A DNA stretch of 64,000 nucleotides, taken from the IMG/VR virus record IMGVR_UViG_3300025316_000017. The stretch is one strand, 5' to 3'. The first letter of the stretch is position 1. Every line of letters starts with the position of its first letter. The notes under the pieces were generated by a model. It made no database searches. It was not told the DNA's origin and saw only the letters and a program-made list of their open reading frames with translations. This DNA is from an uncultured virus (IMG/VR IMGVR_UViG_3300025316_000017) (taxonomy: Duplodnaviria; Heunggongvirae; Uroviricota; Caudoviricetes). The position numbers and the translations under genes are program-made. Below are positions 13,738 to 30,423 of the stretch, piece after piece.

Positions 13738-14085
13738 ATGAAACTTACTCCCGCTATTCTTAAAAATTTGTACTCAGCAATTTATTGTATGAAGCCGTTT
13801 AATCGGTGGAATATGCCATTGCCTGAGCAGATTAACTTTGTTCCCAATGCGGACAAAGATGCGATGGGTACATATATCTATGAAGATGGCGAGGATTTTG
13901 AACACACAATTACTGTTTCAACTGAACTATGTGGGCATTTGTCTACCGTAATAAGAGTCATTTGTCATGAATGTATTCATATGAGCCGATGGGAAAGCGA
14001 CCGCTGGGCAAGCCATGACAAAGAGTTTAAACGTAGAGCTAAGGTTGTATCCCAAGAGTTGGGATTTGACCCTTTAGAACTTTAA
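13738..14085 (+). CDS. SprT-like zincin metalloprotein
   Basis: HECIH...HDKEF motif. Confidence 0.7.
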   Translation: MKLTPAILKNLYSAIYCMKPFNRWNMPLPEQINFVPNADKDAMGTYIYEDGEDFEHTITVSTELCGHLSTVIRVICHECIHMSRWESDRWASHDKEFKRRAKVVSQELGFDPLEL

Positions 14086-14291
14086 CGTGTAATCCAATAG
14101 ATTACAGCAACAGCCATACCACCCAAGAAAGCTGACCAAATCACGTGAGTTAAACAGCGCCCAATCCAATTCATAGCCACGCTAAGGTCATCTTCAAAGC
14201 GAGTGATACCACAAGCGTATTCTGCATCTTTAAACGCTTCGTTTACGCTTCTGTAAGTTTTTCCTAAATCTCTTTGCATATCCCAATTCAT
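14082..14291 (-). CDS. Hypothetical protein with C-terminal TM helix
   Basis: ORF; ATGA overlap. Confidence 0.55.
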   Translation of the reverse strand: MNWDMQRDLGKTYRSVNEAFKDAEYACGITRFEDDLSVAMNWIGRCLTHVIWSAFLGGMAVAVIYWITR

Positions 14292-14491
14292 TGTCGAATT
14301 TTCCTATTGTTAAGTATGTGCATTAGTTCTTGTTCTTCTTCGTATGTTAATGGTTCGGCTGAATCCAGAAGCTCTCCAGAGTCGTTTAAACGCTCTACTT
14401 CCTTAACAAGCTCTTCAAGTTCCGCCTGAGTACCATCAAAAAAATCAAAGCATCCTTCAGCAAAAACTACTTTTGGGTGTTTCTTTGGCAT
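14288..14491 (-). CDS. Hypothetical acidic protein
   Basis: VVFAEGCFDFFDGTQAELEEL; AAGGA SD. Confidence 0.6.
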   Translation of the reverse strand: MPKKHPKVVFAEGCFDFFDGTQAELEELVKEVERLNDSGELLDSAEPLTYEEEQELMHILNNRKIRQ

Positions 14492-14501
14492 ACCAACGTC
14501 C

Positions 14502-14783
14502 TTATTTAATGGCGCTGGCTACCTCCACGATATCCAGCAATAGTTCACGAGCTTCCTGAGCGTTCTCAAACTCATCGGCTTTTTCTAAAACTGTTTGCAG
14601 TATACGCAAATCTCCGATTAATTCTTTGAACTCCTTGGCGGACAGTTTACCCGCTTTATATTTTGATTCCAAGTCCTGAGCCTTAGTTAACAGGTCGTTC
14701 ACGTTCGTGGTTTTTTTACCAAAAATCATATCCCAATTACTTTTGTAGTTTTCTGTTACGGGTTTTTGTTTTTCGTTCATCAA
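14502..14783 (-). CDS. Hypothetical protein
   Basis: ORF with GGAGG SD. Confidence 0.55.
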   Translation of the reverse strand: MMNEKQKPVTENYKSNWDMIFGKKTTNVNDLLTKAQDLESKYKAGKLSAKEFKELIGDLRILQTVLEKADEFENAQEARELLLDIVEVASAIK

Positions 14784-14952
14784 CTGCCTCCAGTTTAACT
14801 TGTGGGTTGTAGTGTTTATTTTTAATTCCTTCTTTCAACATAGCAACAAACCCCCATTGAATTAAAAGTTCCATGCCTTCTTGGTCAAAAGTAATATTAA
14901 AGTCTGCCGAACCATCATGATTTTCTTTGACCATTTTTGCTTTAATATCCAC
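14737..14952 (-). CDS. Hypothetical phage protein
   Basis: VKENHDGSADFNI; GGAG SD. Confidence 0.55.
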   Translation of the reverse strand: MDIKAKMVKENHDGSADFNITFDQEGMELLIQWGFVAMLKEGIKNKHYNPQVKLEAVDERKTKTRNRKLQK

Positions 14953-15118
14953 GCTTCTCCCCCATTAATTTAGCAATCATAGCCATTGATTTTTCAAACA
15001 TTTCATCGGCATATTTTAATTCATCGGCTTGCTTTTTAATCAAATGCACAGCTTCTGAAATATGCACACCTTGATATAGTTCTGCTAAACGATCAGCCAG
15101 TTTATACGGATCTACCAT
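14942..15118 (-). CDS. Small hypothetical protein (58 aa, not in ORF track), distant relative of the MNAxELAD family at 19042/19851
   Basis: Manual translation MVDPYKLADRLAELY...EAVHLIKKQADEL...; AGGAGG SD. Confidence 0.6.
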   Translation of the reverse strand: MVDPYKLADRLAELYQGVHISEAVHLIKKQADELKYADEMFEKSMAMIAKLMGEKRGY

Positions 15119-15127
15119 ACATCCTCC

Positions 15128-16054
15128 TTAAAAATAATTTGCGGTTAATAATTCTTTAAAGTCAGCCATACTCATTTTAGGCAATGGGTTGTATTCTTTG
15201 CCCTTAATTTTGTTTACCCAATGTTGTAGAAACAAAGAATTAAATTCATATGTTTGATTTGCCATGTGATTAGCAAACATTTCAAAGTTTTCTTTTTTTA
15301 CTTCCGACCAATCGTTAACTTTGACCACAGGTAAATTATCATAAAGACTATCAACAAAAGAATTGCGCTTGACAATAGGTATTCCACCCAAGACCAAAGT
15401 TTCATAAGTTCGATGACATTCATATCCTATTCCTTTGGGGCTAACGGTAAACATAAACTCTGCCTGACGTTGCAACATAAATTTTCTAGCTCTTGGCAGA
15501 TTTTCAAAAAAACACGCATCACCATCTATGCTGTTTAAACACTCTTGCCTGTCGCCATGCAAGCTATGCGCCCAGTTGCAGTAATATCCCGCAAGTTTTT
15601 GCGTTGGCGCTTCAAATAAATTTTGCAAAAGCAATCTTTCCTGTGCCATAGGAGATATTTTTCTTAATCCCCATGTGCCTTGCTTTTCCCATACTGTATG
15701 AAAATCCAATCCAATTGGTAAAGCTTGTAGCTTGGGGTGCTCCATCGCCCGATTCTGAACAAACCAATTCATCAAGTGTGGATGATTCAATATCATGTCG
15801 GTTTCACGTTTATACATTGTTACATCGTGATCGCTGTCGCCTGTCACCAAAGTAAAGTAAACAAAAATATGTGATAAAAAATTATCTACAAAGTTTGGCA
15901 AAGCTTCGTAGCATACGTAAATACTATCGCCAGCTTTTAAATCGGTTAACAAATCTGCATCAATGTGACTTGAGCTAGACTGTGGATCTTTATTGTGGTG
16001 ATCGCATGATTTCAAAATGCCACGGCTTGATACAAATTTACATAAACGTTCCAT
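15128..16054 (-). CDS. Putative glycosyltransferase (exostosin/GT47-like)
   Basis: LVTGDSD; C-terminal FTVSPKGIGYECHRTYETLVLGGIPIV. Confidence 0.65.
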   Translation of the reverse strand: MERLCKFVSSRGILKSCDHHNKDPQSSSSHIDADLLTDLKAGDSIYVCYEALPNFVDNFLSHIFVYFTLVTGDSDHDVTMYKRETDMILNHPHLMNWFVQNRAMEHPKLQALPIGLDFHTVWEKQGTWGLRKISPMAQERLLLQNLFEAPTQKLAGYYCNWAHSLHGDRQECLNSIDGDACFFENLPRARKFMLQRQAEFMFTVSPKGIGYECHRTYETLVLGGIPIVKRNSFVDSLYDNLPVVKVNDWSEVKKENFEMFANHMANQTYEFNSLFLQHWVNKIKGKEYNPLPKMSMADFKELLTANYF

Positions 16055-16057
16055 TGT

Positions 16058-16222
16058 TTATCCTTTAAATAAATCTTCTGCTTTTATGCCACGCTGGGCT
16101 AAAGCTTTTTTAATTTTTTGCATGGCAGACTTTTCTAATATCTGTACTGTTCCACGATTGATACCTAATGCTTTGGCTATATCTCTGTGGGTCATTACTG
16201 TTTGTCTTTCATTTGTGTTCAT
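16058..16222 (-). CDS. Sigma-70 region-4-like HTH protein
   Basis: MTHRDIAKALGINRGTVQILEKSAMQKIK. Confidence 0.7.
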   Translation of the reverse strand: MNTNERQTVMTHRDIAKALGINRGTVQILEKSAMQKIKKALAQRGIKAEDLFKG

Positions 16223-16379
16223 ATTTTTTACAAGCCTTTTGGACGTTAATTGGATCTGTGTTTTTAACTTCTGCACAAGCATACACTTTAGGCAACAAAA
16301 GAATCTGAACTATAGTATCAGTCAAATCAAATGCTCCTATGCAAAACAGTGTAATGAATACAATTACAAAAAATTTCAT
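16209..16379 (-). CDS. Small hypothetical membrane/secreted protein (56 aa, not in ORF track)
   Basis: Manual translation MKFFVIVFITLFCIGAF...KYEHK*. Confidence 0.5.
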   Translation of the reverse strand: MKFFVIVFITLFCIGAFDLTDTIVQILLLPKVYACAEVKNTDPINVQKACKKYEHK

Positions 16380-16492
16380 GAATTTCTAATAAATTTTACC
16401 AATTCACCAACCTCTAAAACAAACCAAACCGCCCACCACCACCAGTTGGCATCGCCATAATATAAAAAGAATGCGGTAAGTAATCCAATCAT
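16376..16492 (-). CDS. Small Trp-rich membrane protein (38 aa, not in ORF track)
   Basis: Manual translation MIGLLTAFFLYYGDANWWWWAVWF...; ATGA overlaps both sides. Confidence 0.5.
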   Translation of the reverse strand: MIGLLTAFFLYYGDANWWWWAVWFVLEVGELVKFIRNS

Positions 16493-16683
16493 TTTGTAGT
16501 CCCCCCAAATAATTGCGATTGTAGATTTCTGATAATGTCATTTAAACGCATAATCTCTGAATTCATGGCGTGTATTTGATCTCGCAACAAAGCTACGGTG
16601 TCGTCCATACTGTATATCCATCCAGCAAATGGCACGGGTTCTTTCTCTGCATTTAAACGGTCTTCAGTTGTGAAGCTTGTCAT
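16489..16683 (-). CDS. Hypothetical coiled-coil protein
   Basis: MTSFTTEDR N-terminus; ATGA overlaps. Confidence 0.6.
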   Translation of the reverse strand: MTSFTTEDRLNAEKEPVPFAGWIYSMDDTVALLRDQIHAMNSEIMRLNDIIRNLQSQLFGGTTK

Positions 16684-17102
16684 TTCAATTCCTTTCCATA
16701 TTTGAATAAGTCGTCTTTCTTAACCAAAAATGCCTTTTTGCTACTTACATCACCATCACCAACAAACTCCACATACTTATACTTACCCATAAATATGCAC
16801 CGTATGATCTGCATCGGTTGCATAATCACCCATTTATGATCGTCATAAAATAGCCAATAGTCCGCCGTTGTTGTCATCAAAGCAGATAAAGCACCATTCA
16901 TTTCAATTTCAATTACTACGTTTCCTGTTTCATTGCTCATCGGGTCATACTTCACTTCAACAGATTTATGGCGCTCAGGTAGCCAAATATCGTAGCCTTT
17001 GAATGCATCAATAACCGTGGCGCATGGGTAATATTTTTGTAATATTGCTAACGCTTTGAGTTCCACCTCTTTGCCACGCTCTAAGTCGGCATAAAAATTC
17101 AT
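16680..17102 (-). CDS. PD-(D/E)XK nuclease-like protein
   Basis: YDIWL...VEVKYD...TGNVVIE. Confidence 0.6.
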   Translation of the reverse strand: MNFYADLERGKEVELKALAILQKYYPCATVIDAFKGYDIWLPERHKSVEVKYDPMSNETGNVVIEIEMNGALSALMTTTADYWLFYDDHKWVIMQPMQIIRCIFMGKYKYVEFVGDGDVSSKKAFLVKKDDLFKYGKELK

Positions 17103-17209
17103 TTCTCTTGTGCCTTTCTAGAAAATTCAAAAGCGTGTCCATAGCAATATCGCATAGCCCATAGCCTCCAAAACCTGTTATTGTTACAGCCTTTATGTTT
17201 GCACTTCAT
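17099..17209 (-). CDS. Cassette microprotein (36 aa, Cys/His-containing)
   Basis: MKCKHKGCNNNRFWRLWAMRYCYGHAFEFSRKAQEK*; starts and ends in junction repeats. Confidence 0.6.
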   Translation of the reverse strand: MKCKHKGCNNNRFWRLWAMRYCYGHAFEFSRKAQEK

Positions 17210-17408
17210 TTTTTTGTGCCTTTCTTATTTTTTCCCATACAGCATCTTCAACACGCTTTTCTAATTCATCTAAAAATTGCCGAACGGAAACAGGAGAAAG
17301 CAAATAAACATGAGCAAATATGGCATATGTTTGCGTGGTGTCTAACGCATTTTTAACATCAAGCGGAACGACTAAAGCATATTTTTTAAAAATGTCATCT
17401 ATTATCAT
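17193..17408 (-). CDS. Cassette hypothetical protein
   Basis: Starts at repeat ATG; reads through a 1-nt-shorter repeat copy (RKAQKNEVQT). Confidence 0.6.
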   Translation of the reverse strand: MIIDDIFKKYALVVPLDVKNALDTTQTYAIFAHVYLLSPVSVRQFLDELEKRVEDAVWEKIRKAQKNEVQT

Positions 17409-17770
17409 TTCTCACTTGCCTTTCTTAGTATTGCTCTAGCAAACGGCAAAATAATTTCACGGACATAAGTTAATCCCATTTTTCCAATCACTTCGTTGCT
17501 TTTTTGCCATGTTTGCTCTATTTTCTCATCTGTTAGTTCTTTTACTGGATGAGTATAAAGTGGAATAGGTGGATTCTGAATTGCGTAAGATTTATAGCGA
17601 AATGGTTTGTCGAACTCCAATACTGGGTATCCTAACTTTCCTTGTTTAATCCACGCTACTGGTTCATTGTTCATATCAATGGCTACAATTTGTTTCTCAA
17701 GCTCCGCTATTTTCTTTTCAAGTGATTCAACATAGGTTGCGGAACCATTTCTGTATTTAAAGTTGTTCAT
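17405..17770 (-). CDS. Modular EPVAW-type phage protein
   Basis: NEPVAW...IPLYT...ELTDE...FARAILRKASEK. Confidence 0.65.
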   Translation of the reverse strand: MNNFKYRNGSATYVESLEKKIAELEKQIVAIDMNNEPVAWIKQGKLGYPVLEFDKPFRYKSYAIQNPPIPLYTHPVKELTDEKIEQTWQKSNEVIGKMGLTYVREIILPFARAILRKASEK

Positions 17771-17922
17771 TGTAGTATCCATTTTTTAGTAATTTTGCTG
17801 TAACGACACATAAACTGAAAGTTTTTTACTTTAAAAACAAAACCAAAACTACCTTTATCTGATAGTGGATAGAAATTAAAGCCATATCTGACAGGCTCAC
17901 CTTCTTTGCGGATGTGTATCAT
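17767..17922 (-). CDS. Cassette microprotein (51 aa, not in ORF track)
   Basis: MIHIRKEGEPVRYGFNFYP...KKWILQ*; starts at repeat ATG. Confidence 0.6.
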   Translation of the reverse strand: MIHIRKEGEPVRYGFNFYPLSDKGSFGFVFKVKNFQFMCRYSKITKKWILQ

Positions 17923-18182
17923 TTCTCTTGTGCCTTTCTTAGTATTGCTCTAGCAAACTTAAATACTTCTTCAAGATTTAATTGGTCTTGGTCGTGTAAA
18001 CCCCATGCTTTTCGACATTCGACTTCTATTTCCTCATCTGTTAGTTCCTTAAACCCTGTATAGAGTGGAATAGCTGATTCATATAAACGATATGGCAATT
18101 TATTTCTTTCCACATCAAAATACAAGTCTGTTTTAAGACCATCGTAATCTTTGCCCATCCACGCTACTGGTTCATTTTTCAT
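17919..18182 (-). CDS. Modular EPVAW-type phage protein
   Basis: NEPVAW...IPLYT...ELTDE...FARAILRKAQEK. Confidence 0.65.
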   Translation of the reverse strand: MKNEPVAWMGKDYDGLKTDLYFDVERNKLPYRLYESAIPLYTGFKELTDEEIEVECRKAWGLHDQDQLNLEEVFKFARAILRKAQEK

Positions 18183-18364
18183 TCGCAGTTTTTCCTTAGT
18201 CGTTTAGTTTCGTTTTGATTGTCGGAAAAGTATTTACACACCTTGCCTTCTCTTGGGCTGTCCACAAAGTAAGACTGGTACTCTGGCGTTGCTCTAGCAG
18301 TAAACCGATAACACCTCTCACGCTTCTTACAAGTTTCATCCCGACACATCGTTATATCAGCCAT
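18179..18364 (-). CDS. Small Cys-rich phage protein
   Basis: MADITMC...C.KRE.CYRF...QSYF...C.YF. Confidence 0.65.
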   Translation of the reverse strand: MADITMCRDETCKKRERCYRFTARATPEYQSYFVDSPREGKVCKYFSDNQNETKRLRKNCE

Positions 18365-18566
18365 TGTTTCGTGCCTTTCTTAGTTCAATTGTTTCCTCTG
18401 TAACATATTTAGAAGCAAATTCACCTACGCAATGCCAACAAGCTGGGTAAACTTTATCATCACACCTAATCGACCAATCAGGAACAGCCCCATGTTTTTT
18501 ACAAATGTTCTTTTTTATGGTTATTGGTTCTTTTGGTTTATTAAATAAACGAGTTAAAAGATTCAT
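18357..18566 (-). CDS. Cassette protein with possible Zn finger
   Basis: CKKHG...CWHC; starts at repeat ATG. Confidence 0.6.
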   Translation of the reverse strand: MNLLTRLFNKPKEPITIKKNICKKHGAVPDWSIRCDDKVYPACWHCVGEFASKYVTEETIELRKARNNG

Positions 18567-18679
18567 TTCTCTTGTGCCTTTCTATGTTTACACCATGCTT
18601 GAATAAAACCACATAAAATAGCCCCAATAAAACCGCCCAATGAAGCACCCAAAATTTCAGCATATGTCATACAAATCAT
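18563..18679 (-). CDS. Cassette membrane microprotein (38 aa)
   Basis: MICMTYAEILGASLGGFIGAILCGFIQAWCKHRKAQEK*. Confidence 0.55.
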   Translation of the reverse strand: MICMTYAEILGASLGGFIGAILCGFIQAWCKHRKAQEK

Positions 18680-18695
18680 TTCTCTTGTGCCTTTC

Positions 18696-18872
18696 TTAAT
18701 GTTCACCAAACATTTCAAGCTGTAAATTGCCTGCCAAACCTTCTTTATCAACTATGTTATGTGTGCAGTTTGTAAATGCTTCGTACAACTTTTCACGCAA
18801 CTTTAGTATTTCTTGCTGGTTATAAGTAACTATTTGACAGGTAAATTTCAATTCTATTTCTTTAGCTTTCAT
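18696..18872 (-). CDS. Cassette protein (58 aa, not in ORF track)
   Basis: MKAKEIELKFTCQ...EMFGEH*; stop lies at the upstream edge of the next repeat. Confidence 0.55.
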   Translation of the reverse strand: MKAKEIELKFTCQIVTYNQQEILKLREKLYEAFTNCTHNIVDKEGLAGNLQLEMFGEH

Positions 18873-19045
18873 TTCTCTTGTGCCTTTCCATCAATCCATT
18901 CCCAACCTAAGAGCAACTTAGACATTTTTCTGTGTAACCAACATGGTTTCTTAGTTGCATAAACATTAAATCTTTCACAAATAATCCATCTACCAGCTTC
19001 TTCTGGTTGTTTTATATAAAAATGGTTTGTAAAGTCTGGTGTCAT
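18869..19045 (-). CDS. Cassette protein (58 aa)
   Basis: MTPDF...KKPCWLHRKMSKLLLGWEWIDGKAQEK*. Confidence 0.6.
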   Translation of the reverse strand: MTPDFTNHFYIKQPEEAGRWIICERFNVYATKKPCWLHRKMSKLLLGWEWIDGKAQEK

Positions 19046-19431
19046 TTCTCTTGTGCCTTTACTAATATCCCTAAAACTTGACCGCAACATACTTTGACTG
19101 CGTTGTATGCCTCTGGCATATTTTCATCAGCACACCAGTATGCTGCACCCATAATTGCTACACGAACTTGCTCTATAACCTCATCTGTTAGTTCACGCAT
19201 TTCTAATGCTACGGCTCTTTTATGTTGTTCTTCTGCAAAATTTTGAATGAACCGATTTGCGTTTTTTAAATCTTCTATTTCATTTTGTTGCTGGCGTAGC
19301 ATGGTGGCGGCTTCGTCTAATTGGTCGGCTAATCTGTCGTTGGCGTTTTCTTGTACGCTCTTACGGCTTGTTGCTTGCCTTCGAATTGACGCACGAATTT
19401 CCATTGCATCAGCTAGTTCATTTGCGTTCAT
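19042..19431 (-). CDS. Modular MNAxELAD-type protein
   Basis: MNANELAD...ATMLRQQQ...ELTDE...KAQEK. Confidence 0.65.
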   Translation of the reverse strand: MNANELADAMEIRASIRRQATSRKSVQENANDRLADQLDEAATMLRQQQNEIEDLKNANRFIQNFAEEQHKRAVALEMRELTDEVIEQVRVAIMGAAYWCADENMPEAYNAVKVCCGQVLGILVKAQEK

Positions 19432-19750
19432 TTAAAACCTCCTGCATTGAAATTAGTCTCATCATACCAAGCCCACTTTCTTCAAGCTGTGTCATCATAT
19501 TTTCAATGACACCCCTTGTATATGCGCTCATGCCCTGAGACTCTTTGTAGCACTTGTACACACTGCCAGAGTAGCCGTGGATGTCGTAATGCTTTTCATG
19601 CTCCTCAATGCGCTCAATGCCAGAGTTCATTCTCCATGAGTCACTGCCGCCGTAGCCACCAAACCAAGAGCCCACCACCTTGTCAATCTGTGGGTGGTCT
19701 TTGGATGTGATGCGGACAATAGTCCAGCGGTCTGGTGTGTAGTCACTCAT
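19418..19750 (-). CDS. Conserved hypothetical phage protein
   Basis: YTPDRW...GSWFGGYGGSDSWRMNSGI...GYSGSVYKC. Confidence 0.7.
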   Translation of the reverse strand: MSDYTPDRWTIVRITSKDHPQIDKVVGSWFGGYGGSDSWRMNSGIERIEEHEKHYDIHGYSGSVYKCYKESQGMSAYTRGVIENMMTQLEESGLGMMRLISMQEVLNERK

Positions 19751-19854
19751 TTGTCTTGTGCCTTTCTAAAAAGCCTTACAACTTTACTAACAAGCACCCA
19801 AACACCAATGAAAGGAATTGCAAGCAAAACTATTAAGTCCCTTATTCCGTTCAT
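19747..19854 (-). CDS. Cassette membrane microprotein (35 aa, not in ORF track)
   Basis: MNGIRDLIVLLAIPFIGVWVLVSKVVRLFRKAQDK*. Confidence 0.55.
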   Translation of the reverse strand: MNGIRDLIVLLAIPFIGVWVLVSKVVRLFRKAQDK

Positions 19855-20048
19855 TTCTCATTAACCTTTCCTGTAATTGCCTTTAAAAATGGACTCCATG
19901 TATCACGCCAATCTTCTAAAAATGCCACTTGTTGTTTCAAGTCTTTAATTTCAGCTTGTTGCTGGCGTAGCATGGTGGCTGCAATTTCCATGACACCAAC
20001 AAACGGATAAGTATTTTCTAATTCATCAGCTAGTTCAGTTGCGTTCAT
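19851..20048 (-). CDS. Modular MNAxELAD-type protein
   Basis: MNATELAD...ATMLRQQQ...GKVNEK. Confidence 0.65.
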   Translation of the reverse strand: MNATELADELENTYPFVGVMEIAATMLRQQQAEIKDLKQQVAFLEDWRDTWSPFLKAITGKVNEK

Positions 20049-20971
20049 ATCAACTCCAAAGATGGTTGTTTCAATCTTTCTTTTTGTAGCTTTTTGTATT
20101 CAGGATTAAGTTCGCAGCCAAGATAATGCCTGTTTAAACGCTCTGCTACCGCAGCGGTAGTTCCTGAACCCATAAATGGATCAAGCACGATGTCACCAAC
20201 TTTTGTGCTGGCTAAGACACAAGGCTCAATTAATTCGGGAGGATAAACAGCAAAGTGTGCGCCATGAAAAGGCTTGGTCGTTACTGTCCACACCGAACGT
20301 TTATTTGCCATGTCATAACTTTTTTCAAGCCCCGAATGAGGATTCAAGCCAGTTCCTTCATTGTGATACTTGCCTTTTGACCTATCCCTTGTACCCCAGT
20401 CTTCTTTGACTGGTTCTTGAATAGCCAAATGATCAAAGTAATACTTAGATTTTTTGCTTAGTAGGAATATGTACTCATGATTCTTTGTGCATCTATCCTT
20501 AACAGACTCAGGCATTGGATTCGGTTTATGCCAAATAATATCTTGTCGTAGATACCAGCCAAAGCTTTGCAATGCAAATGCAACCCGCCAAGGAACACCA
20601 ATAAGATCTTTAGGTTTTAAACCATCAGGAACAATCTTGGAGTGTTTACCTTCCATGTGATGCTGTTGCCCGTTTAAACTCTTTGACGGTCCTTTGCCGC
20701 TACCAGCGTAACTATCACCAAGGTTTAACCAAACAGTACCATCATCAGACAATAGATTCCAAACATCCCGAAAAACGTCCACAATATTAGAAACGTAATC
20801 CCCAACATCAGCTTCCAGCCCAATCTGTCCTTTGTGTCCATAGTCTCTCAATCCAAAGTACGGCGGGGAAGTGATGCAAGTTTGTACCTTGACACCATCC
20901 TTCCGCCATTTTTTCATAATGGCTCGGCAATCACCGAACTCAATTACGTTATGCATAACGGATGACTTCAA
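20045..20971 (-). CDS. DNA amino-methyltransferase (N4-C/N6-A, beta class)
   Basis: TSPPY catalytic motif before DPFMGSGTT SAM-binding motif. Confidence 0.9.
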   Translation of the reverse strand: MKSSVMHNVIEFGDCRAIMKKWRKDGVKVQTCITSPPYFGLRDYGHKGQIGLEADVGDYVSNIVDVFRDVWNLLSDDGTVWLNLGDSYAGSGKGPSKSLNGQQHHMEGKHSKIVPDGLKPKDLIGVPWRVAFALQSFGWYLRQDIIWHKPNPMPESVKDRCTKNHEYIFLLSKKSKYYFDHLAIQEPVKEDWGTRDRSKGKYHNEGTGLNPHSGLEKSYDMANKRSVWTVTTKPFHGAHFAVYPPELIEPCVLASTKVGDIVLDPFMGSGTTAAVAERLNRHYLGCELNPEYKKLQKERLKQPSLELI

Positions 20972-21302
20972 TACGATTTTGTTCTTTATTGATCATTGTG
21001 TTGTAAGTGTTCTTACCAAGATTGGTAGTCAACCTAGCGCACAAAGAACCACGTAAAGTTTCAAGATCATATCCTTCTGCTGGAATTACACGTACATCAC
21101 CCACTTGAATATCTTTAATGTATGGTTGTACATACGTTGAAAGAGTTCCATGTGGATAAAGCGATGGCTTTCTTTTGCTTTTTTCCACTACTTCTAATAC
21201 ACCATGTTTGCCACCCTCTTCGTCAATGATTGCAAATTGACAATTTAAAGCTTGCAACATTTTGATAGCCCGATTAAGGGTTTGAATTTTAATCTGTTCC
21301 AT
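20949..21302 (-). CDS. Hypothetical protein
   Basis: ORF in operon. Confidence 0.6.
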   Translation of the reverse strand: MEQIKIQTLNRAIKMLQALNCQFAIIDEEGGKHGVLEVVEKSKRKPSLYPHGTLSTYVQPYIKDIQVGDVRVIPAEGYDLETLRGSLCARLTTNLGKNTYNTMINKEQNRIEVIRYA

Positions 21303-21498
21303 TTTTTACCTTTCTGTTTACACGTTTTTTAATTGCTACTATTCCTTCTTCATTAACTTTGCGAGCATCAAGCATTGCATCTGCTATGCAATATGCCCTT
21401 TCTGCTAACGTAATTTCGGGATGATTATCTTTGTATGCCATTACCAAGCCAACCATCCCAAACATTGCAAAGCAATCCCGCAAGTCATTTTCGTTCAT
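21289..21498 (-). CDS. Conserved phage protein (LRD.FA...AY.IADAML family)
   Basis: Recognisable motif. Confidence 0.65.
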   Translation of the reverse strand: MNENDLRDCFAMFGMVGLVMAYKDNHPEITLAERAYCIADAMLDARKVNEEGIVAIKKRVNRKVKNGTD

Positions 21499-21794
21499 AC
21501 CATGCCTCTCATAAACTTCATGATGTCATCACATACGTTTTGAGCAAATGTTTTTCCTGATGGGAAAGCCATCTTTGCCCCTTCCGATACCTGCGTTATT
21601 TCCATTGCCTTGTTTAAACCGTCATTAAATCCACGGTTGTAAGGATCTTTATCGCCACTCATGCGCATCCGAATACCTTCTCTCGCAATTACTGTCTTTG
21701 GAGTTTGGGTAGACCTAGCATACTTTGTGAACTTCTCATCCTCTTCGGGAGACATATAGATCATGATTTGTTTTAGATTTTTAGAATGGGTCAT
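21495..21794 (-). CDS. Possible ribbon-helix-helix DNA-binding protein
   Basis: QIMIYMSPEEDEKF...KTVIAREGI. Confidence 0.45.
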   Translation of the reverse strand: MTHSKNLKQIMIYMSPEEDEKFTKYARSTQTPKTVIAREGIRMRMSGDKDPYNRGFNDGLNKAMEITQVSEGAKMAFPSGKTFAQNVCDDIMKFMRGMV

Positions 21795-22191
21795 TGTCTT
21801 TCCACTTCTCGTACTCACCAAGCACTGCATCAAATCTAGCTTTCGCTTCTGCGTTGCCATTGAGTTCGGTACGTGAGGCGATTTCGCACAGTGCATAAAG
21901 TCCTTCCACTGCATCGTCTTCACCATCAATATCAAACTGATGTACGGTTTTTAAATAATGTTGAAAAGATTTTTCTCTGCAAATCATTCCAGCCTTCTTA
22001 ACTCGATTGTCGTAATGCTTGGCGGTTTCGTTATCCTCAATCCGCACAAGCGCTACTCCATACCTCGCCCCAACAAAATCCCGCATTAGTTCTTCGGGGA
22101 TTTCATCGGGATGGATATTCAAAGTCAATACAAAGCCAGTCTTATCTTGCTTCAAAGCAATCTTGATAGCTTCAAATTGAAGTGCATTCAT
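21781..22191 (-). CDS. Conserved hypothetical phage protein
   Basis: FEAIKIALKQDKTG.VLTLNIHP...SRTELNGN. Confidence 0.6.
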   Translation of the reverse strand: MNALQFEAIKIALKQDKTGFVLTLNIHPDEIPEELMRDFVGARYGVALVRIEDNETAKHYDNRVKKAGMICREKSFQHYLKTVHQFDIDGEDDAVEGLYALCEIASRTELNGNAEAKARFDAVLGEYEKWKDNDPF

Positions 22192-22397
22192 TGGTTTAAC
22201 TTATGCTCCAAGTAAGAAATTACTGCCTGATAGCCAATTGCTTGATGTTCAAGATTGTCAATGTGTGCGTGTAAAGCATCCTTGTCTTTCTTGAGTTCAG
22301 CAATTTCGTTAAGGGCATCAAACGTTATTGTTCCTGCTTCTTCAGCAAGCTGTTTAAACGCTTTGATTGTCGGACGCTTAGAACGGGATTTCGTCAT
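22188..22397 (-). CDS. Hypothetical coiled-coil protein
   Basis: ORF in operon. Confidence 0.55.
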   Translation of the reverse strand: MTKSRSKRPTIKAFKQLAEEAGTITFDALNEIAELKKDKDALHAHIDNLEHQAIGYQAVISYLEHKLNQ

Positions 22398-22659
22398 CTT
22401 CAATCTCCACCGTTTTAGATTTAGTTTGTTGTCCATCAGGTTTCCATATGTTTACCGCAAGCGATAAGTATGTGCCACCTGATCTAGATTGCTTTTTCCA
22501 ACCCGACAATTTAAACGTAGCTTGGTTATTCTCTATTTCAACGGTGCTTAAATCAATCTTAAATTCACCAAAGTAATCAGGGGAATCGGATGACTTTTTA
22601 AACTTGCTTGCGTTTAATGTTCCAGTGTTGGGTAAAACTTCCCATTCTTTCTTTTCCAT
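22378..22659 (-). CDS. Putative single-stranded DNA-binding protein
   Basis: PDYFG...LSGWKK...YLSL; acidic DDEIPF tail. Confidence 0.7.
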   Translation of the reverse strand: MEKKEWEVLPNTGTLNASKFKKSSDSPDYFGEFKIDLSTVEIENNQATFKLSGWKKQSRSGGTYLSLAVNIWKPDGQQTKSKTVEIEDDEIPF

Positions 22660-22661
22660 TT

Positions 22662-23270
22662 TTAGTCCTTAAATTTAGATTTAAACTCTGCAAATTTTGA
22701 TTGCAGTTCTTTATATACATCAGGTACAGCTTCCTTCATCAAGTCAATTTGGGTTTGATTCTTTTTCCAAAATGAACTTAATTCTTTTATGCTTTCGGCA
22801 GATTCACCGTAAGCAATCATTGCACTAGCCAATGTTCCAAAATCAGATTGTTCAACCTTTGCTACAGGCTTAATCATCTTCTGCTCAACTGGCGCAGATC
22901 CAGTAGTGGCATCGAGTACATCATTTTCTACAATAGCTAATGCTGTTGTATATAAATATCTACGCTGATAGCTTTCAACTGCGCCAATATTTTGAACCTC
23001 ATGACAACCTTTGAGATTGGCTGAACCCATAGGTGATGTAAACACAACAGAACTGTTGTCTTCTACATCATGGATTGTCATTGTTGCAAGGTCTTCATTA
23101 AAACAAATAACATCCACCAGCCCATGCTTTTCAAACAGCATTTGGATAGCTGGCAAAAAATCTCCCAACTCAAAATACTTATAGCCAGCAAACTTGTTAT
23201 GCCCTGACTTGTTAAGTGGCATTCCAGCCAACTCATTTCTAACAGCAATTAATTTTTTAAGTACTTTCAT
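22662..23270 (-). CDS. erf: ERF-family single-strand annealing recombinase
   Basis: YKYFEL.D...QNIGAVESYQRRY. Confidence 0.8.
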   Translation of the reverse strand: MKVLKKLIAVRNELAGMPLNKSGHNKFAGYKYFELGDFLPAIQMLFEKHGLVDVICFNEDLATMTIHDVEDNSSVVFTSPMGSANLKGCHEVQNIGAVESYQRRYLYTTALAIVENDVLDATTGSAPVEQKMIKPVAKVEQSDFGTLASAMIAYGESAESIKELSSFWKKNQTQIDLMKEAVPDVYKELQSKFAEFKSKFKD

Positions 23271-23440
23271 TGTGCATTCTCCAAAAATTGATCAGCCAAT
23301 TTATTAGCAACCACATAAATAGCTTCATGCGCTTCATAATTATTCAATACTAAATCTGATGGCAAAAGTTCATATACACCATCTGCATTACTTGCCAATG
23401 CAACCATAAAATCGTAAATCATTTCTTGACGTGTTTTCAT
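23267..23440 (-). CDS. Small hypothetical protein (57 aa, not in ORF track)
   Basis: MKTRQEMIYDFMVALASN...; AGGAG SD; ATGA overlaps. Confidence 0.6.
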   Translation of the reverse strand: MKTRQEMIYDFMVALASNADGVYELLPSDLVLNNYEAHEAIYVVANKLADQFLENAQ

Positions 23441-23691
23441 ATTTTCTCCTTTGGAATAAATCGGTTTTTATTGGGCACTACAAAACTCTTGTAATCAAAT
23501 GCGTGTAACTCCGCTGGCTCATCGTAAAAATTACGTTGCTTTAATTCGTTTTCTTGCCAAAATAAATGCGGACTTTCCTCTTGAATTTTCCTAATTGCAT
23601 CATCCAAGATGGGATTAATTTTTCCAAAATTCGGATCGGTTTTTTTTCTTGATGCAATTTTCAGCATCATCTGTTGCTCTTTGTTTAGCAC
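23437..23691 (-). CDS. Hypothetical protein
   Basis: AGGAG SD before GTG. Confidence 0.5.
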   Translation of the reverse strand: MLNKEQQMMLKIASRKKTDPNFGKINPILDDAIRKIQEESPHLFWQENELKQRNFYDEPAELHAFDYKSFVVPNKNRFIPKEKI

Positions 23692-24572
23692 GACTGCTCC
23701 TTTAAATAAGATTGATATTGACTGCACCATTTGTTAACACCGCAATAGTTACCAGTACACCGCACTGGCTCACCTTTACGCACTTCAATTGACAACTTCT
23801 TTTTGTCTTCTGATTCTTCAATCAGCTTAACTGCATCCTCTTGTGCATCAAACACACGCACCGCAGATTTACGTCCTTCCTTCTTTACTGCGTACGTTGT
23901 GGTGCGCATCCAACGTTCTTCTTCTGTGCACTCAGGCAACTCCTCATCCCAGTCCGCTTGAACCTTGGATTCTTTGTGCAACTCGATACGTTCGTGAACA
24001 TACTTCTCGGTCTTATCAAAAGACCATATTGGTATGTCAACCATTTGGATTTGGGCTTGGGGATAGCCTGATTCAGTTTGTGCTTTGCGGGTAGACCAAT
24101 CACGCAATATGGCGCAGATTTGCAAGCCTTTGATATCTACCCCTTTGATCTTATGAACCATCCAGCCATAGACGTTTAATTGCTGTTCCCATTCGGGTTT
24201 ATCGTTCATCACCGCCCATACGGATGTGAACTTATAGTCTTTGAGCGCAACCCCGCCCTTAACGTGCTGTTGCAAATCAATCGAACCTGATAACGTGACC
24301 CCATCAATCTCCATAAATAATCGTTCCTCGTTTAAATGGTCGATCACCTCACTACGTTCAGCTACTACGTGTAGTGCCGAACCGAGCATTGACCACAACA
24401 TATCGGTTACATCCTGTTCCATGTCATCCCAGTGCTTTCTTTTTAAGCGCTGAATGCGTGGGGGTGACATGATCTCCGTAACGGAATAATCAGCCTTTCC
24501 TTTTGAATAGTATTCTTTACGTGCCAGCGCCACTAATGGCTCAGGTACATTAAAATGATTAGTAATCTTCAC
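23685..24572 (-). CDS. PD-(D/E)XK (Cas4/RecB-like) exonuclease
   Basis: LGSALH...SGSID...DYKFTS...QLNVY; C-terminal Cys cluster; next to erf/ssb. Confidence 0.8.
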   Translation of the reverse strand: MKITNHFNVPEPLVALARKEYYSKGKADYSVTEIMSPPRIQRLKRKHWDDMEQDVTDMLWSMLGSALHVVAERSEVIDHLNEERLFMEIDGVTLSGSIDLQQHVKGGVALKDYKFTSVWAVMNDKPEWEQQLNVYGWMVHKIKGVDIKGLQICAILRDWSTRKAQTESGYPQAQIQMVDIPIWSFDKTEKYVHERIELHKESKVQADWDEELPECTEEERWMRTTTYAVKKEGRKSAVRVFDAQEDAVKLIEESEDKKKLSIEVRKGEPVRCTGNYCGVNKWCSQYQSYLKEQSC

Positions 24573-24598
24573 GTGTCCTCCTATGCGAACGTCCCTAC

Positions 24599-24627
24599 AT
24601 ACTAATACTACTTTTTTCTAAATGCAA
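24599..24627 (-). promoter_or_regulatory. Sigma70-like promoter for leftward recombination operon
   Basis: TTGCAT-17bp-TAGTAT on minus strand. Confidence 0.5.
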
Positions 24628-24990
24628 ACACTATTTTTAAAAATATTTGGCGAACCAGCAAGCAAAGCAAATTCACGTAGACAAGTGTTTGTGAAAGGAC
24701 GCTCAATGTTTATCAAGTCGGCGAAGGCATTAACATATGCATCAGCGTTTAAACTTCAAGCAAAAAACCAGATTTCTGAAATGTTGTCTGGGGATGTGGT
24801 GGTAACGATTCGCATTTGGTATGCATCACGTAGACCTGATTTGGATGAAAGTTTAATTTTAGATTTGCTACAGGATGTTACGTATGCCAACGATAGACAA
24901 GTAAAAGAAAAGCATATTTATTGGATGGGTGTAGATAAATTGAATCCTCGGTGCGAAATTGAAGTTCGTTCTCTTGCACAAGAAAAATAA
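24622..24990 (+). CDS. rusA: RusA-like Holliday junction resolvase
   Basis: P.SKAN...RRPDLD...DLLQ...NDRQV. Confidence 0.8.
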   Translation: MQTLFLKIFGEPASKANSRRQVFVKGRSMFIKSAKALTYASAFKLQAKNQISEMLSGDVVVTIRIWYASRRPDLDESLILDLLQDVTYANDRQVKEKHIYWMGVDKLNPRCEIEVRSLAQEK

Positions 24991-25001
24991 TTTGGTATGA
25001 T
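24974..25001 (+). promoter_or_regulatory. Sigma70-like promoter (extended -10)
   Basis: TTGCAC-16bp-TATGAT with TG upstream of -10. Confidence 0.5.
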
Positions 25002-25038
25002 CGTATCTGTATTTGTAGTCCTCACGTGGTAGTACTTT

Positions 25039-25073
25039 TGGAGAGCGCCTGTTTAAACGCTCTCCATTTTTTT
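25039..25073 (+). terminator. Intrinsic terminator
   Basis: TGGAGAGCG/CGCTCTCCA stem followed by T7. Confidence 0.8.
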
Positions 25074-25128
25074 CACGGCAGCCGGGTAAGAACAACAAAG
25101 TTTAAACATCCACTAGCATCGAAAGTGC

Positions 25129-25158
25129 TTGCAAAGTATTTCATGTTTTAAGTAAGAT
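25129..25158 (+). promoter_or_regulatory. Sigma70-like promoter
   Basis: TTGCAA-18bp-TAAGAT. Confidence 0.5.
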
Positions 25159-25165
25159 TAAATTC

Positions 25166-25365
25166 TGTTCAGATTGTCGATGAAAAACGGTAGGGTCTGA
25201 ACGTGTATTGCCGATACTATGGTTAGTGCGTTAGAGATCGGGAGGGGATGGCGAAGACAGAATCCCTCGCACGAAAAGTCTGTCGGGTCAATCGAAGCAT
25301 GGGGCACGATTGTGAAGGCAACCTAGTTTAGGCTAGGTCTGCCCTCCCAAAGGGCAAGACCGAGA
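25166..25365 (+). ncRNA. Candidate structured ncRNA with pseudoknots
   Basis: Six or more complementary segment pairs, several needing G-U pairs on the + strand; no long ORF. Confidence 0.55.
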
Positions 25366-25447
25366 GTTAACTAATAGTTATTAGACAAATTTATTTTTTG
25401 TGTAATATGTTGCACATTTTTGTGTGAACAAATTGAAAGAAGTTTTT

Positions 25448-25723
25448 ATGCCATACGTCAACAAAGCAAGACCTTATAAAAAAGAATACCAACAACAAAA
25501 AGAACGTGGCGAACAACCAGCACGTAACGCAAGAGCAAGAGCACGTTATGACATGGATAAAAAAGGTGTTGACAGATCAGGAAAAGATATTGATCATGTA
25601 ACTCCTTTATCAAAGGGAGGAACAAATTCTCCAAAAAATTTAAAATTAAAAACACCAACAAATAACAGATCGTTTTCCCGCAATAGCGATCACACTGTGA
25701 AGACTAACAAAAGCAAGAAGTAG
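25448..25723 (+). CDS. Small HNH-family endonuclease
   Basis: Arg-rich helix then DIDHVTPLSKGG.N...NL.....NNRS. Confidence 0.75.
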   Translation: MPYVNKARPYKKEYQQQKERGEQPARNARARARYDMDKKGVDRSGKDIDHVTPLSKGGTNSPKNLKLKTPTNNRSFSRNSDHTVKTNKSKK

Positions 25724-25732
25724 GAGAAGTAA

Positions 25733-28345: not shown

Positions 28346-28569
28346 TGAATGATCTCGCCATCATCAGGCAACTGCTCTTTGTAAAGACCAGTAATCATGA
28401 TGGATATATTGCGAATAAGGGATTGCTCTTGAAAAGAAAAGAACAATCCCACCTTGGCTATAGTCAACCCCAAGGCGGGGAGGATTGTCTCGACTGGCAT
28501 ACCATCGATTAACTCACCTATCCCCGCCATCAGGTTATCTACTTCATCTGCTTGATCTTCAATGCTCAT
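28342..28569 (-). CDS. Hypothetical protein
   Basis: ORF with AGGAG SD. Confidence 0.55.
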   Translation of the reverse strand: MSIEDQADEVDNLMAGIGELIDGMPVETILPALGLTIAKVGLFFSFQEQSLIRNISIMITGLYKEQLPDDGEIIH

Positions 28570-29375
28570 TACCGTAACTCCTTGAGTAGTTTGTTGAATG
28601 ATGCTGATGCCAAGCCACTGACATTCTCAACATTCTCACCACTCGTGAAGCATTGGTCAACCGTAGTGCGACCGATACCGATTGCCACGATCTTGACACC
28701 GAGCTTGTCTGCTACTGATTGCAAGTGTTTCATATGCGCCTTGCAGTAGCCATCCGCATCAGTGATCAAGAACAAGATCTTGCGCTGTGCATCCTGACGA
28801 TACAGATCCTCAATCGCTAGGCTCAGTGCTGAGTAGTCAGGTGTTGATGACTGCGCCCACTGGCGAATCGATCCAAGCTTTGCCGATGCCTTGGCTAGAT
28901 TTTCTTTCCATGTTTTGAATGGAATGAATCTCACGTGCTCAGTACGAAACGCATCGCCACGCTTAGTCGCACCGCTCTCGTCTAAAGCTTTGAGACTGGT
29001 GTTGCCATGAAAGCCTGTGACGTTGAACTCGACACCAGCCTTGTCTAAGATGCGTGACAACTGGATCGTAATGGATTCAGCGATGACGATCTTGTTATCC
29101 TCCTCCATCGATCCTGAGCAATCGATCAAGACTGACACCGAAGACTTAACAGCATCAACGTGTTGGCGCTTACTAAACACCGCTGTGCTACCGCAAGCAA
29201 ATCGTGTAAACGCTTTACGATCAACCTTGCCTGATTCCTCGTGCGTTGACCAACCAACCAAGTCAACTGAACGTAGCAAGCGTAGGATGTTTGCACGTGT
29301 TGCACCAAGCCCGCTGGTCTGCGTATTGAACTGGGCTGAGAAGTTAGTCTCGCATTCTGCTTTGTTGAGAATCAT
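28569..29375 (-). CDS. VWA-domain protein (CobT C-terminal-like)
   Basis: MIDAS DCSGSM, T and LITDAD; GGAGG SD before ATG 29375. Confidence 0.8.
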   Translation of the reverse strand: MILNKAECETNFSAQFNTQTSGLGATRANILRLLRSVDLVGWSTHEESGKVDRKAFTRFACGSTAVFSKRQHVDAVKSSVSVLIDCSGSMEEDNKIVIAESITIQLSRILDKAGVEFNVTGFHGNTSLKALDESGATKRGDAFRTEHVRFIPFKTWKENLAKASAKLGSIRQWAQSSTPDYSALSLAIEDLYRQDAQRKILFLITDADGYCKAHMKHLQSVADKLGVKIVAIGIGRTTVDQCFTSGENVENVSGLASASFNKLLKELR

Positions 29376-29376
29376 A

Positions 29377-30414: not shown

Positions 30415-30423
30415 AAAGCCCTC

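Follow-up and report, generated by a model that had tools for sequence, protein, structure and literature searches.

A short stop/start linker at junctions of small early genes in lake phages and its association with gene exchange

Based on a 64,000-nucleotide stretch from an uncultured virus of the Caudoviricetes (IMG/VR record IMGVR_UViG_3300025316_000017; this whole stretch is called the window), we describe a short DNA element, here named the linker, that joins consecutive genes in an array of small open reading frames (ORFs). It is real, widespread and defined at the level of DNA; lake phages exchange small early genes there, and it probably serves both as a translational-coupling linker and as a crossover site for short-homology recombination. 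Our confidence that annealase-type short-homology recombination is the cause of the exchange is moderate. An earlier reading, made from the sequence alone, had proposed that recombination at the junction repeat inserts, deletes and swaps cassettes, and comparison of at least 129 IMG/VR stretches and 22 contigs of metagenome-assembled genomes (MAGs) supports this proposal. The test set in advance to refute it was a comparison of cassette order and breakpoints in relatives, in which the order was found to differ and the breakpoints to fall at the repeat.

The linker occurs as a core, (CT)AAGAAAGGCACAAGAGAAATGA, 21-24 nt in length, and as a long form of 39 nt with TTTGCTAGAGCAATACTA at its beginning. 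It contains a weak AAAGG ribosome-binding tract, a downstream ATG with an overlapping TGA, and an alternative TAA at its 5' edge; the upstream gene usually ends in the peptide RKAQEK. A sequence logo revealed nothing conserved past ATGA, TA at positions -2/-1 in about 190 of 224 copies, and the block TTTGCTAGAGCAATACTA ahead of the core in a large subset of copies. Thus a short conserved sequence of 21-39 nt lies at the gene boundary, with unrelated modules on either side and flanks at background identity.

Occurrence of the linker and homology breakpoints

The search of phage metagenomes that had been suggested for the repeat returned the exact 19-mer core in at least 129 IMG/VR stretches, often with 2-6 copies per contig and a median spacing between linkers of 212 nt, and in 22 MAG contig stretches. 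From the former, 128 loci were taken together with the window as the survey set, which contains 235 non-identical copies. Linkers within one locus all lie on one strand, and 229 of the 235 copies have ATG as their start codon. Information is complete for 220 copies: this ATG opens an ORF of at least 30 codons in 212 of them (median 65 aa) and one of 3-29 codons in eight. Upstream, the RKAQEK frame, which ends in the linker TGA, is open for at least 30 codons in 175 of 205 copies; 18 copies have 10-29 open codons there, and 12 have fewer than 10. Given these counts for start and tail, the constant property of the linker is being the start of a small ORF, and the shared tail is usual but not obligatory. 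Members of one gene family may occur with or without the linker (F10, 6/11 members; F26, 4/7; F21, 3/7). No rule was found by which the first linker of an array is always the long form, since this form occupies 16 of 33 first positions, 21 of 71 later positions and 22 of 34 solitary ones.

The stretch itself is partly present in 20 freshwater, lake-water or freshwater-sediment runs of 11 studies, with at least half of its sampled words in 10 of them; runs of four studies contain 0.86-0.94 of its words. Among the runs containing the stretch, none was recorded as RNA. The array had a single trivial match of 39 nt in GenBank phages by megablast, and tblastn of a protein of the F0 family (described below) against GenBank phages gave none, so that no cultured relative of the array is at hand. 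The labels of the MAG contigs are mutually incompatible (Micrarchaeota, Nitrosotalea, Bacteroidetes, a cyanobacterium, and five as beta-proteobacterium, Burkholderiales or Polynucleobacter); we treated them as mis-binned phage contigs and name no host from them. The archaeal-labelled MAG contigs carry arrays with up to 7 exact linkers and are probably phage contigs that were binned wrongly; L129, L142 and L143 are one 138,666-nt contig labelled Micrarchaeota, and L144 and L145 are labelled Nitrosotalea.

For the comparison of flanks, linkers from different loci were paired and 90 nt on each side were aligned without gaps at a threshold of at least 65% identity. The upstream flank alone was shared in 92 pairs, the downstream flank alone in 44, and both flanks in a single pair. 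In 16 printed alignments, representing 13 distinct pairs, identity changed at the edges of the linker, one side being 84-99% identical and the opposite side about 25-45%. The MAG contigs replicated this pattern at 80% identity, with 12 pairs sharing only the upstream flank, four only the downstream flank, and none both.

The ends of high-scoring segment pairs (HSPs) were examined by an all-against-all blastn of the loci, from which L003 and L042 were dropped for overlap and in which the window was cut to 14000-26000; HSPs of at least 100 nt and at least 80% identity were retained. Of 556 internal right ends, 219 fell within -5..+10 of the linker end, 134 of them exactly there, and 87 of 552 internal left ends fell within -30..+5 of the linker start. 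Among the 243 unique pairs of fully internal HSPs, 108 had a linker at one end at least: at both ends in 9, at the right end only in 86 and at the left end only in 13, the remaining 135 having it at neither. The nine doubly bounded HSPs are single cassettes of 129-249 nt with 88-97% identity.

As controls we used tight junctions (gap -45..+20) without a linker, within 2.5 kb of arrays, and scored homology of at least 80% that continued for at least 60 nt across the junction. Homology entering from upstream crossed 10 of 225 linker junctions, in contrast to 49 of 123 other tight junctions; from downstream, the corresponding values were 10 of 97 and 55 of 168. Continuity was therefore 4-10% at linker junctions and 33-40% at the others. 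At the protein level, when the upstream proteins were at least 80% identical, the downstream gene belonged to the same family in 4 of 36 ordered pairs at linker junctions, compared with 126 of 223 at other junctions. With high confidence, these alignments indicate that breakpoints concentrate at the linker, and the effect has a consistent direction and size in all the measures.

Individual loci illustrate this pattern. The backbones of L057 and L071 are collinear, with 72-81% identity on both sides, and the intervening arrays cannot be aligned; homology resumes 2 nt before the linker in both. L071 and L073, with backbones at 74-79%, share 191 nt at 99.5% identity that end at the last base of the linker, which points to a recent transfer. 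Cassette F136 of the window (18696-18872), with both its linkers, is 96% identical to its counterpart in L031, a locus with a Sak-like annealase in its module and otherwise unalignable to the window. The order of cassettes differs as well: F31 is followed by F136 in the window, and F136 by F31 in L031. Furthermore, F31 has a different downstream neighbour in each of five mapped copies, and it was found again in the MAG contig L130.

A graded series was found in loci that share their backbone. Erf, an SSB-like ORF, small ORFs and the methylase are common to the window, L027 and L039, and the exonuclease was seen in two of them, the stretch of L039 beginning after it. Between the methylase and the anchor gene F78 there are no ORFs in L027, four in L039 (869 nt) and 15 in the window (~2.9 kb). 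In L027 the methylase overlaps F78 directly and no linker is present; in L039 and the window F78 is preceded by a linker.

Linker copies, the F0 family and the gene array of the window

We scanned the whole 64 kb for the minus-strand 21-mer AGAAAGGCACAAGAGAAATGA with up to 3 mismatches, using 100 dinucleotide-preserving shuffles as the control. Eight minus-strand copies were recovered, starting at 17099, 17405, 17919, 18563, 18676, 18869, 19042 and 19747, with none elsewhere in the 64 kb and none in the shuffles. A looser scan, combined with reading of the strand, added three decayed copies at ORF junctions with 5-6 mismatches, which brings the number to the 11 copies of the earlier count. At up to 7 mismatches the number of matches in the whole window lies within chance expectation; the three decayed copies were accepted solely for their intact AGAAAGGCAC half and their position at ORF junctions within the same operon.

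Following the direction of transcription on the minus strand, the array begins with a decayed copy at 19851..19871 (GGAAAGGTTAATGAGAAATGA, 5 mismatches), which ends the upstream protein in GKVNEK and whose ATGA starts a 35-aa ORF. The copy at 19747..19767 (1 mismatch, tail RKAQDK) starts the ORF 19418-19750, the copy at 19042..19062 (2 mismatches, tail VKAQEK) starts cassette F31, and the copy at 18869..18889 (1 mismatch, tail GKAQEK) starts cassette F136. The HSP shared with L031 (219 nt, 96%) begins at the last of these and terminates at the exact copy 18676..18696, which starts a 38-aa ORF. This copy follows the TAA stop of F136 (18696-18698), which abuts its edge, and hence gives no translated tail; the copy had been described as intact beyond the upstream ORF, as we find it. 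Another exact copy, at 18563..18583, encodes RKAQEK and starts a 69-aa ORF. Next is the decayed copy at 18360-18380 (AGAAAGGCACGAAACAATGG.., 6 mismatches), where an apparent 1-nt indel has shifted the stop, giving RKARNNG, and the ATG is kept. The two long forms lie at the 3' ends of F0 genes: 17919..17957 is exact, encodes FARAILRKAQEK before the stop and belongs to family D3, and 17405..17443, the 'S allele', encodes FARAILRKASEK before the stop, with RKASEK as its tail and 3 mismatches in the 21-mer. The decayed copy at 17205-17225 has 5 mismatches and an apparent 1-nt deletion, is read through as RKAQKNEVQT, and its ATG starts a 36-aa ORF. Finally, the exact copy at 17099..17119 (tail RKAQEK) starts the backbone gene F78, and the homology to L039 begins exactly there. 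The out-of-register reading assigned to the copies near 17206 and 18361 is confirmed by these two read-through peptides. The tails RKAQEK, RKAQDK, VKAQEK, GKAQEK and RKASEK on unrelated ORFs of 35-129 aa likewise agree with the shared tail and overlapping ATGA start that the sequence-only reading had pointed out. Three array junctions, at 19431, 18182 and 17782, have no linker copy. The junction between F78 and the next ORF (16663-16686, minus strand), GGAAAGGAATTGAAATGA, resembles a linker lacking one codon and may be an older decayed copy.

Conservation was suggested to act on the DNA, and several observations uphold this. In the 90 long-form copies, which encode a FARAIL-like tail, pairwise identity over -18..-1 is 0.94, 0.93 and 0.95 at codon positions 1, 2 and 3, and falls to 0.31-0.33 over the preceding 42 nt (-60..-19); in the other 130 copies, conservation is limited to the core of 21-24 nt. 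The equal conservation of silent positions, the sharp edge, and the presence of intact copies outside long RKAQEK-frame ORFs argue against a cause at the protein level. No RNA feature was found: five copies with their flanks fold no better than shuffles (z -0.24 to +1.23), and Rfam gave no match over 14000-25000. The array has no excess of promoter-like or terminator-like sites (19 promoter-like sites with 31.8 expected; 0 terminator-like sites on the minus strand), and no promoter match falls at the copies.

The long form is the 3' end of an uncharacterised gene family, named F0 here; both were absent from the earlier description. F0 has 154 members in the clustering of the loci, and 102 of its 134 complete members end in the linker. 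A database search with a 125-aa member returned 1695 clusters at E <= 0.001, all metagenomic, without a Pfam domain, and named 'hypothetical' apart from two odd source labels. Among the best 120 homologues the tail is RKAQEK in 56 and RKASEK, the allele at 17405, in 21, with about 100 being RKAxEK-like. The proteins consist of constant blocks (MNNEPVAW, IPLYTHPVKELTDEEI, FARAILRKAQEK) interleaved with two variable segments, V1 and V2. In 58 of the 120 proteins these could be parsed, into 28 V1 and 46 V2 clusters, and 10 V1 clusters pair with 2-7 V2 clusters each. The blocks are also repeats in the DNA and invariably lie on the strand of the linker: one 18-mer was found 82 times, in 65 of 127 sequences, and one 21-mer 88 times, in 72 of 127. 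F0 thus has the appearance of in-frame cassette swapping inside a protein, its constant blocks being near-identical DNA in most loci. The AF2 model of an F0 protein, the 87-aa product of 17919..18182, has a pLDDT of 77 and a pTM of 0.42 and has no match at E <= 0.001 in the PDB or BFVD; an Ead/Ea22-like identity, for which one BFVD row was obtained at E = 0.1, was too weak to use.

Four F0 or F0-type genes lie inside the array of the window. The gene at 17919..18182 (87 aa, minus strand) has no Pfam or PHROG match and combines the constant blocks MKNEPVAW, PLYT..ELTDEEI and FARAILRKAQEK with two variable segments. The gene at 17405..17782 (125 aa, minus strand) carries an extra N-terminal coiled-coil module. 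An F0-type gene at 19042..19431 (129 aa, minus strand) has the modules MNANELAD..AATMLRQQQ..ELTDE.. and belongs to families D7-D9, and another at 19851..20048 (65 aa, minus strand) has the N-terminal module only (families D8 and D9). Summed contig depth on conserved F0 blocks and 3' ends is about 145-3140, in comparison to about 5-30 on the backbone, so these blocks are far more abundant than this phage. In four lake metagenomes, 17387-18037, 19123-19556 and 19774-20207 stand tens to a hundred times above backbone depth and are common to a large part of the local phage community.

The array itself (16680..20048, minus strand) comprises 15 small ORFs of 35-129 aa, tightly coupled by position and all co-directional, together with the anchor gene. 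It is hyperplastic, holding all 15 ORFs between two conserved backbone genes: an N6/N4 DNA methylase at 20045..20971 (minus strand), which opens it, and F78 at 16680..17102 (140 aa, phrog_13596, minus strand), which closes it. Cassette F136 (18696..18872, 58 aa, minus strand) has linkers on both sides, and cassette F31 (18869..19045, minus strand) is bounded by linkers in 5 of the 6 complete members of its family. Pfam and PHROGs gave no match for cassette proteins except phrog_20586 for a 61-aa ORF and phrog_13596 for F78. Upstream of the array, in the same direction of transcription, lies a recombination module (22378..24572, minus strand) with a PD-(D/E)XK exonuclease (23685-24572), an Erf annealase (22662-23270) and an SSB-like ORF (22378-22659). 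Pfam and PHROG place all three upstream on the same strand, in agreement with the earlier remark that they lie nearby. The leftward early operon therefore reads exonuclease, Erf, SSB-like ORF, small ORFs, methylase, array (20048 to 17102), F78 and a sigma-70 region-4-like gene.

The recombination set is unusually full, with Erf, the exonuclease, the SSB-like ORF, RusA (24622-24990) and an ORF with a RecA-dependent nuclease domain (PF16786; 11621-11920, minus strand). The sigma-70-like protein (16058-16282, minus strand) has 74 aa and little beyond region 4 (PF04545; phrog_351); its family, F3, with 16 members, recurs beside arrays in other contigs, sometimes twice. The terminase (35376-36887) has its nearest cultured relatives in the pelagiphages HTVC027P and HTVC023P at 52-57% identity, HTVC027P being the nearest with a TerL identity of 57%, and the window also encodes a capsid protein and SU10-type adaptors. 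Among the tail genes is a 2331-aa protein with LPD38 and DUF7178 domains, of the polyvalent-protein type (4629-11624, plus strand). At 28569-31854 (minus strand) we found a CobT-like VWA protein, an ORF without family match and an AAA_5/CbbQ-type ATPase, with a G+C content of 0.45-0.49 compared with about 0.40. At 43285-46363 (minus strand) a TPR-repeat protein of 537 aa, an unknown ORF and an FkbM-type methyltransferase lie on the opposite strand within the structural gene block.

Mechanism and alternative explanations

We propose that, during co-infection or replication, short-homology recombination would pair two linkers and exchange what adjoins them, either via single-strand annealing by phage Erf-, Sak- or RecT-type annealases with exonucleases or via template switching. 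Since the crossover lies in the stop/start overlap of one polycistronic early operon, recombinants would stay in register; every incoming ORF would be positioned for coupled translation at once, and the price would be a harmless hydrophilic tail. Identity among linkers would persist because cassettes travel with them, and copies no longer exchanged would decay, as three in the window may have done, two of them by apparent 1-nt indels. In the part of PMC3945230 drawn on here, efficient pairing needs a segment of at least 23-27 bp with Red-beta and of at least 31-34 bp with RecA, and the Erf/Exo pair of phage D3 matches Red in efficiency whether the substrates are identical or diverged. With 21-24 nt, the core lies at the lower edge of the range given there, and the 39-nt long form lies above it.

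In 44 loci the sequence extends for 3 kb or more upstream of the first linker. An annealase family was detected in 18 of these (Erf in 13, Sak-like in 3 and RecT-like in 2), and in a further 10 the stretch fetched encodes a family-A DNA polymerase or a primase-helicase without any annealase. That the linker crosses backbone types fits exchange in a shared host pool, and the genomic evidence for a role of Erf in particular is only circumstantial.

Several points weigh against exchange by recombination at the linker. No annealase was seen in the stretch fetched of 26 of the 44 long loci. No direct recombination product was seen; all joints in one contig mapping rest on sides of 21-32 nt, a length that the mapping tool itself flags as unreliable. 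The comparison sequences are metagenome assemblies, in which chimeric joins at a shared repeat are possible in part. HSP and pair counts are not independent events, because a cassette common to several contigs is counted several times. ORF calling for the control junctions was crude, so that some of these junctions may involve spurious ORFs, and they are themselves often breakpoints (~60-67%). On their left, shared blocks often end within an F0 gene and not at a linker, as the 86 right-only and 13 left-only HSPs indicate. Conservation of the core is partly built in, since each locus was ascertained through one exact 19-mer; among 113 further copies, which were not used for ascertainment, 69 have the exact 19-mer. 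Lastly, the pattern would look no different if the sequence were kept constant by a role in translation or regulation.

The last of these points leads to the alternative of a start-associated element of translation or regulation, similar to start-associated sequences (SAS) or to a RegA-type operator, in which a ribosome feature or an RNA-binding factor of phage or host keeps the sequence, and exchange is a by-product of having the identical sequence at many starts. The linker always sits on a start codon in one orientation only, its copies in the window are confined to the early operon of non-structural genes, it resembles a good initiation region in being purine-rich and free of structure, and the families F10, F26 and F21, with their optional linkers, are compatible with a modulatory signal; SAS elements are placed alike in the part of PMC3203893 concerned. 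On the other side, its AAAGG lies 10 nt from the ATG and is weaker than the AAGGAG at 6-8 nt in structural genes of the same phage or the GGAG or AGGAGG at 5-6 nt from the start at the linker-free array junctions 20048 and 19431, so that this phage can write better ribosome-binding sites than the linker. In addition, the extra 18 nt of the long form, identical at silent sites and present only behind F0 genes, are not needed by a start signal, and no candidate regulator co-occurs in all backbones. We regard such an element as unlikely to be the whole explanation of the constancy. It concerns only what keeps the sequence constant and is compatible with exchange at the linker; maintenance by exchange and maintenance by a translational or regulatory role are compatible and look alike in the sequences compared. 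A functional peptide tag, in which selection keeps the RKAQEK (or FARAILRKAQEK) C-terminus for degradation, localisation or partner binding, would fit the 175 of 205 copies in frame with a long upstream ORF and the roughly 100 RKAxEK-like tails among the best 120 F0 homologues. It is very improbable, given that conservation is as high at third codon positions as at the other two, that the upstream frame is shorter than 10 codons in 12 copies and 10-29 codons in 18, that the ORF of F136 cassettes stops at a TAA ahead of the linker, and that unrelated membrane-like, zinc-finger-like and coiled-coil ORFs of the array all end in the same tail.

It is also conceivable that assemblers joined unrelated phage genomes at a shared repeat and so mimicked shuffling. 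All comparison sequences are metagenome contigs, and the metagenome mapping used Logan contigs and no raw reads. These contigs are long over both flanks of the array; within it they are pieces of at most 600 nt, many of which end at linkers, and loose ends with low consensus lie just past the linkers at 17405, 17919 and 18676. The breaks of unitigs at linkers, like the high depth of F0 3' ends, would fit such an artefact, but as such they indicate only that the linkers have many contexts or are multi-copy in the samples, and not recombination. Joints in the contig mapping, including 17941>18676 and 18585>18676, have sides of 21-32 nt, which is the repeat itself, and were rejected as evidence of junction-to-junction deletion; uncovered parts in run X12 (17170-17386 and 18906-19122) were not used as evidence either. 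Against an artefact, the exact repeat is only 21-39 nt long, and common assemblers usually finish with longer k-mers. The junctions 17099, 18869, 19042 and 19747 are spanned by unitigs that come from runs of different studies, so these four linkages are not chimeras of one assembly. The one-sided pattern of homology was seen alike in IMG/VR contigs and in separately filed MAG contigs, and 0.86-0.94 of the words of the stretch recur in the runs of four studies. We consider it highly unlikely that assembly accounts for the pattern. An even less probable source is an integron-like site-specific system, with a dedicated recombinase acting on the repeat as its core site. Co-directional, putatively promoterless cassettes separated by one repeat would suit it, but no integrase, resolvase or transposase was detected among 60 window ORFs or 73 upstream ORF representatives of other loci, the linker is asymmetric and purine-rich without an inverted repeat and shows the folding z values given above, and the backbones that carry it are heterogeneous.

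Exchange at the linker may also be framed more broadly, as a tentative possibility that we would not favour at present. The linker would then be a community-wide connector through which unrelated lake-phage lineages, with Erf, Sak-like or RecT-like annealases or T7-like replication genes, trade ready-to-express ORFan genes by one 21/39-nt plug without a dedicated recombinase. F0 genes would act mainly as adaptors, their blocks (the MNNEPVAW start, PLYTHPVKELTDEEI, and FARAILRKAQEK with its stop and ATGA) seeding recombination both inside the protein, where the two variable segments would be swapped in frame, and behind it, where new genes would dock. The sequence would be kept by second-order selection for exchangeability and not for a function in the protein or in translation.

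Relation to known systems and significance

Integron cassettes are promoterless, co-directional small genes with a repeated recombination site between them and a content that varies among relatives. The array resembles them as a co-directional set of small genes with a repeat and variable gene content. It differs in that no IntI-type recombinase was found by Pfam among the 60 window ORFs, in accordance with the absence of an integrase reported earlier, or by PHROGs among the 73 upstream ORF representatives, and in lacking attI, a structured attC and any sign of site-specific chemistry. The term 'integron-like', used in the sequence-only reading, is thus an analogy only. The exo-xis or 'ea' region of lambdoid phages contains small accessory ORFs downstream of recombination genes, with Ead/Ea22-like mosaic coiled-coil proteins. 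The array shares with it a variable block of small ORFs directly downstream of recombination genes in the early operon and coiled-coil mosaic proteins, but no significant sequence or fold match was found here, and we know of no repeated linker in the lambdoid region.

PeSL (promoter-early stem-loop) cassettes of T4-type phages, as presented in the portions of PMC2839356 (Arbiol et al. 2010) and PMC4122927 (Comeau et al. 2014) used here, are closer: a short repeated expression signal lies between small, mostly ORFan, non-essential genes of a hyperplastic region, and relatives differ by insertions, deletions and replacements at the repeats through homologous recombination. Indels and replacements bounded by the repeat were found between relatives of the linker loci as well. 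In contrast, PeSL is described there as an intergenic sigma-70 promoter with a terminator stem-loop, neither of which the linker has, and the linker is a stop/start junction inside coding sequence, with a shared protein tail, in non-T4 phages; mini-circles formed by exchange between neighbouring repeats are a feature of the PeSL account. The boundary (linker) sequences of the modular theory are, in the section of PMC3029335 that treats them, short conserved sites at gene boundaries for homologous recombination between otherwise unrelated modules; that section states that most mosaic boundaries yield no linker sequence, and it describes one case of roughly 50 bp with a shared 18-residue C-terminus. 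Here, a conserved junction sequence has unrelated flanks and more breakpoints than other boundaries (the counts not being independent events), and the difference is that one defined sequence marks hundreds of junctions across differing replication and recombination modules with a measurable excess of breakpoints. SAS and ESAS of Cluster K mycobacteriophages, in the part of PMC3203893 available, are of 13 bp with the consensus GGGATAGGAGCCC, lie 3-7 bp upstream of the start, contain a strong AGGAG core and possibly function in translation initiation. Like the linker, they are asymmetric, occur in one orientation before the starts of many unrelated non-structural genes and sometimes contain the upstream stop. 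The linker has the same placement, in one orientation at the starts of non-structural genes, but it lacks the SAS consensus and any likeness in sequence, includes the start codon, has only AAAGG and spans 21-39 nt; cassette shuffling at SAS goes unmentioned in that part of the paper (Pope et al. 2011).

Literature searches, whose coverage was poor for subscription journals and excluded supplements, found no description of the linker sequence, its peptide or a stop/start linker of this kind. To call it an undescribed system was nevertheless an overstatement, as the boundary-sequence idea, PeSL cassettes and the start-associated sequences of Cluster K are already published. Among published linker-like systems, it is an unusually clean and quantifiable case.

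Two explanations of phage mosaicism have long competed: in one, recombination takes place at linkers that are short and conserved, and in the other, illegitimate joining occurs at random and selection acts on the products. With one linker at hundreds of junctions across backbone types, and an excess of breakpoints that can be measured against neighbouring junctions, the linker model becomes directly testable. The analysis also brings to attention F0, an uncharacterised family of very large size in which constant blocks are interleaved with variable ones. Furthermore, the linker suggests a natural design rule for scarless, translation-coupled gene swapping.

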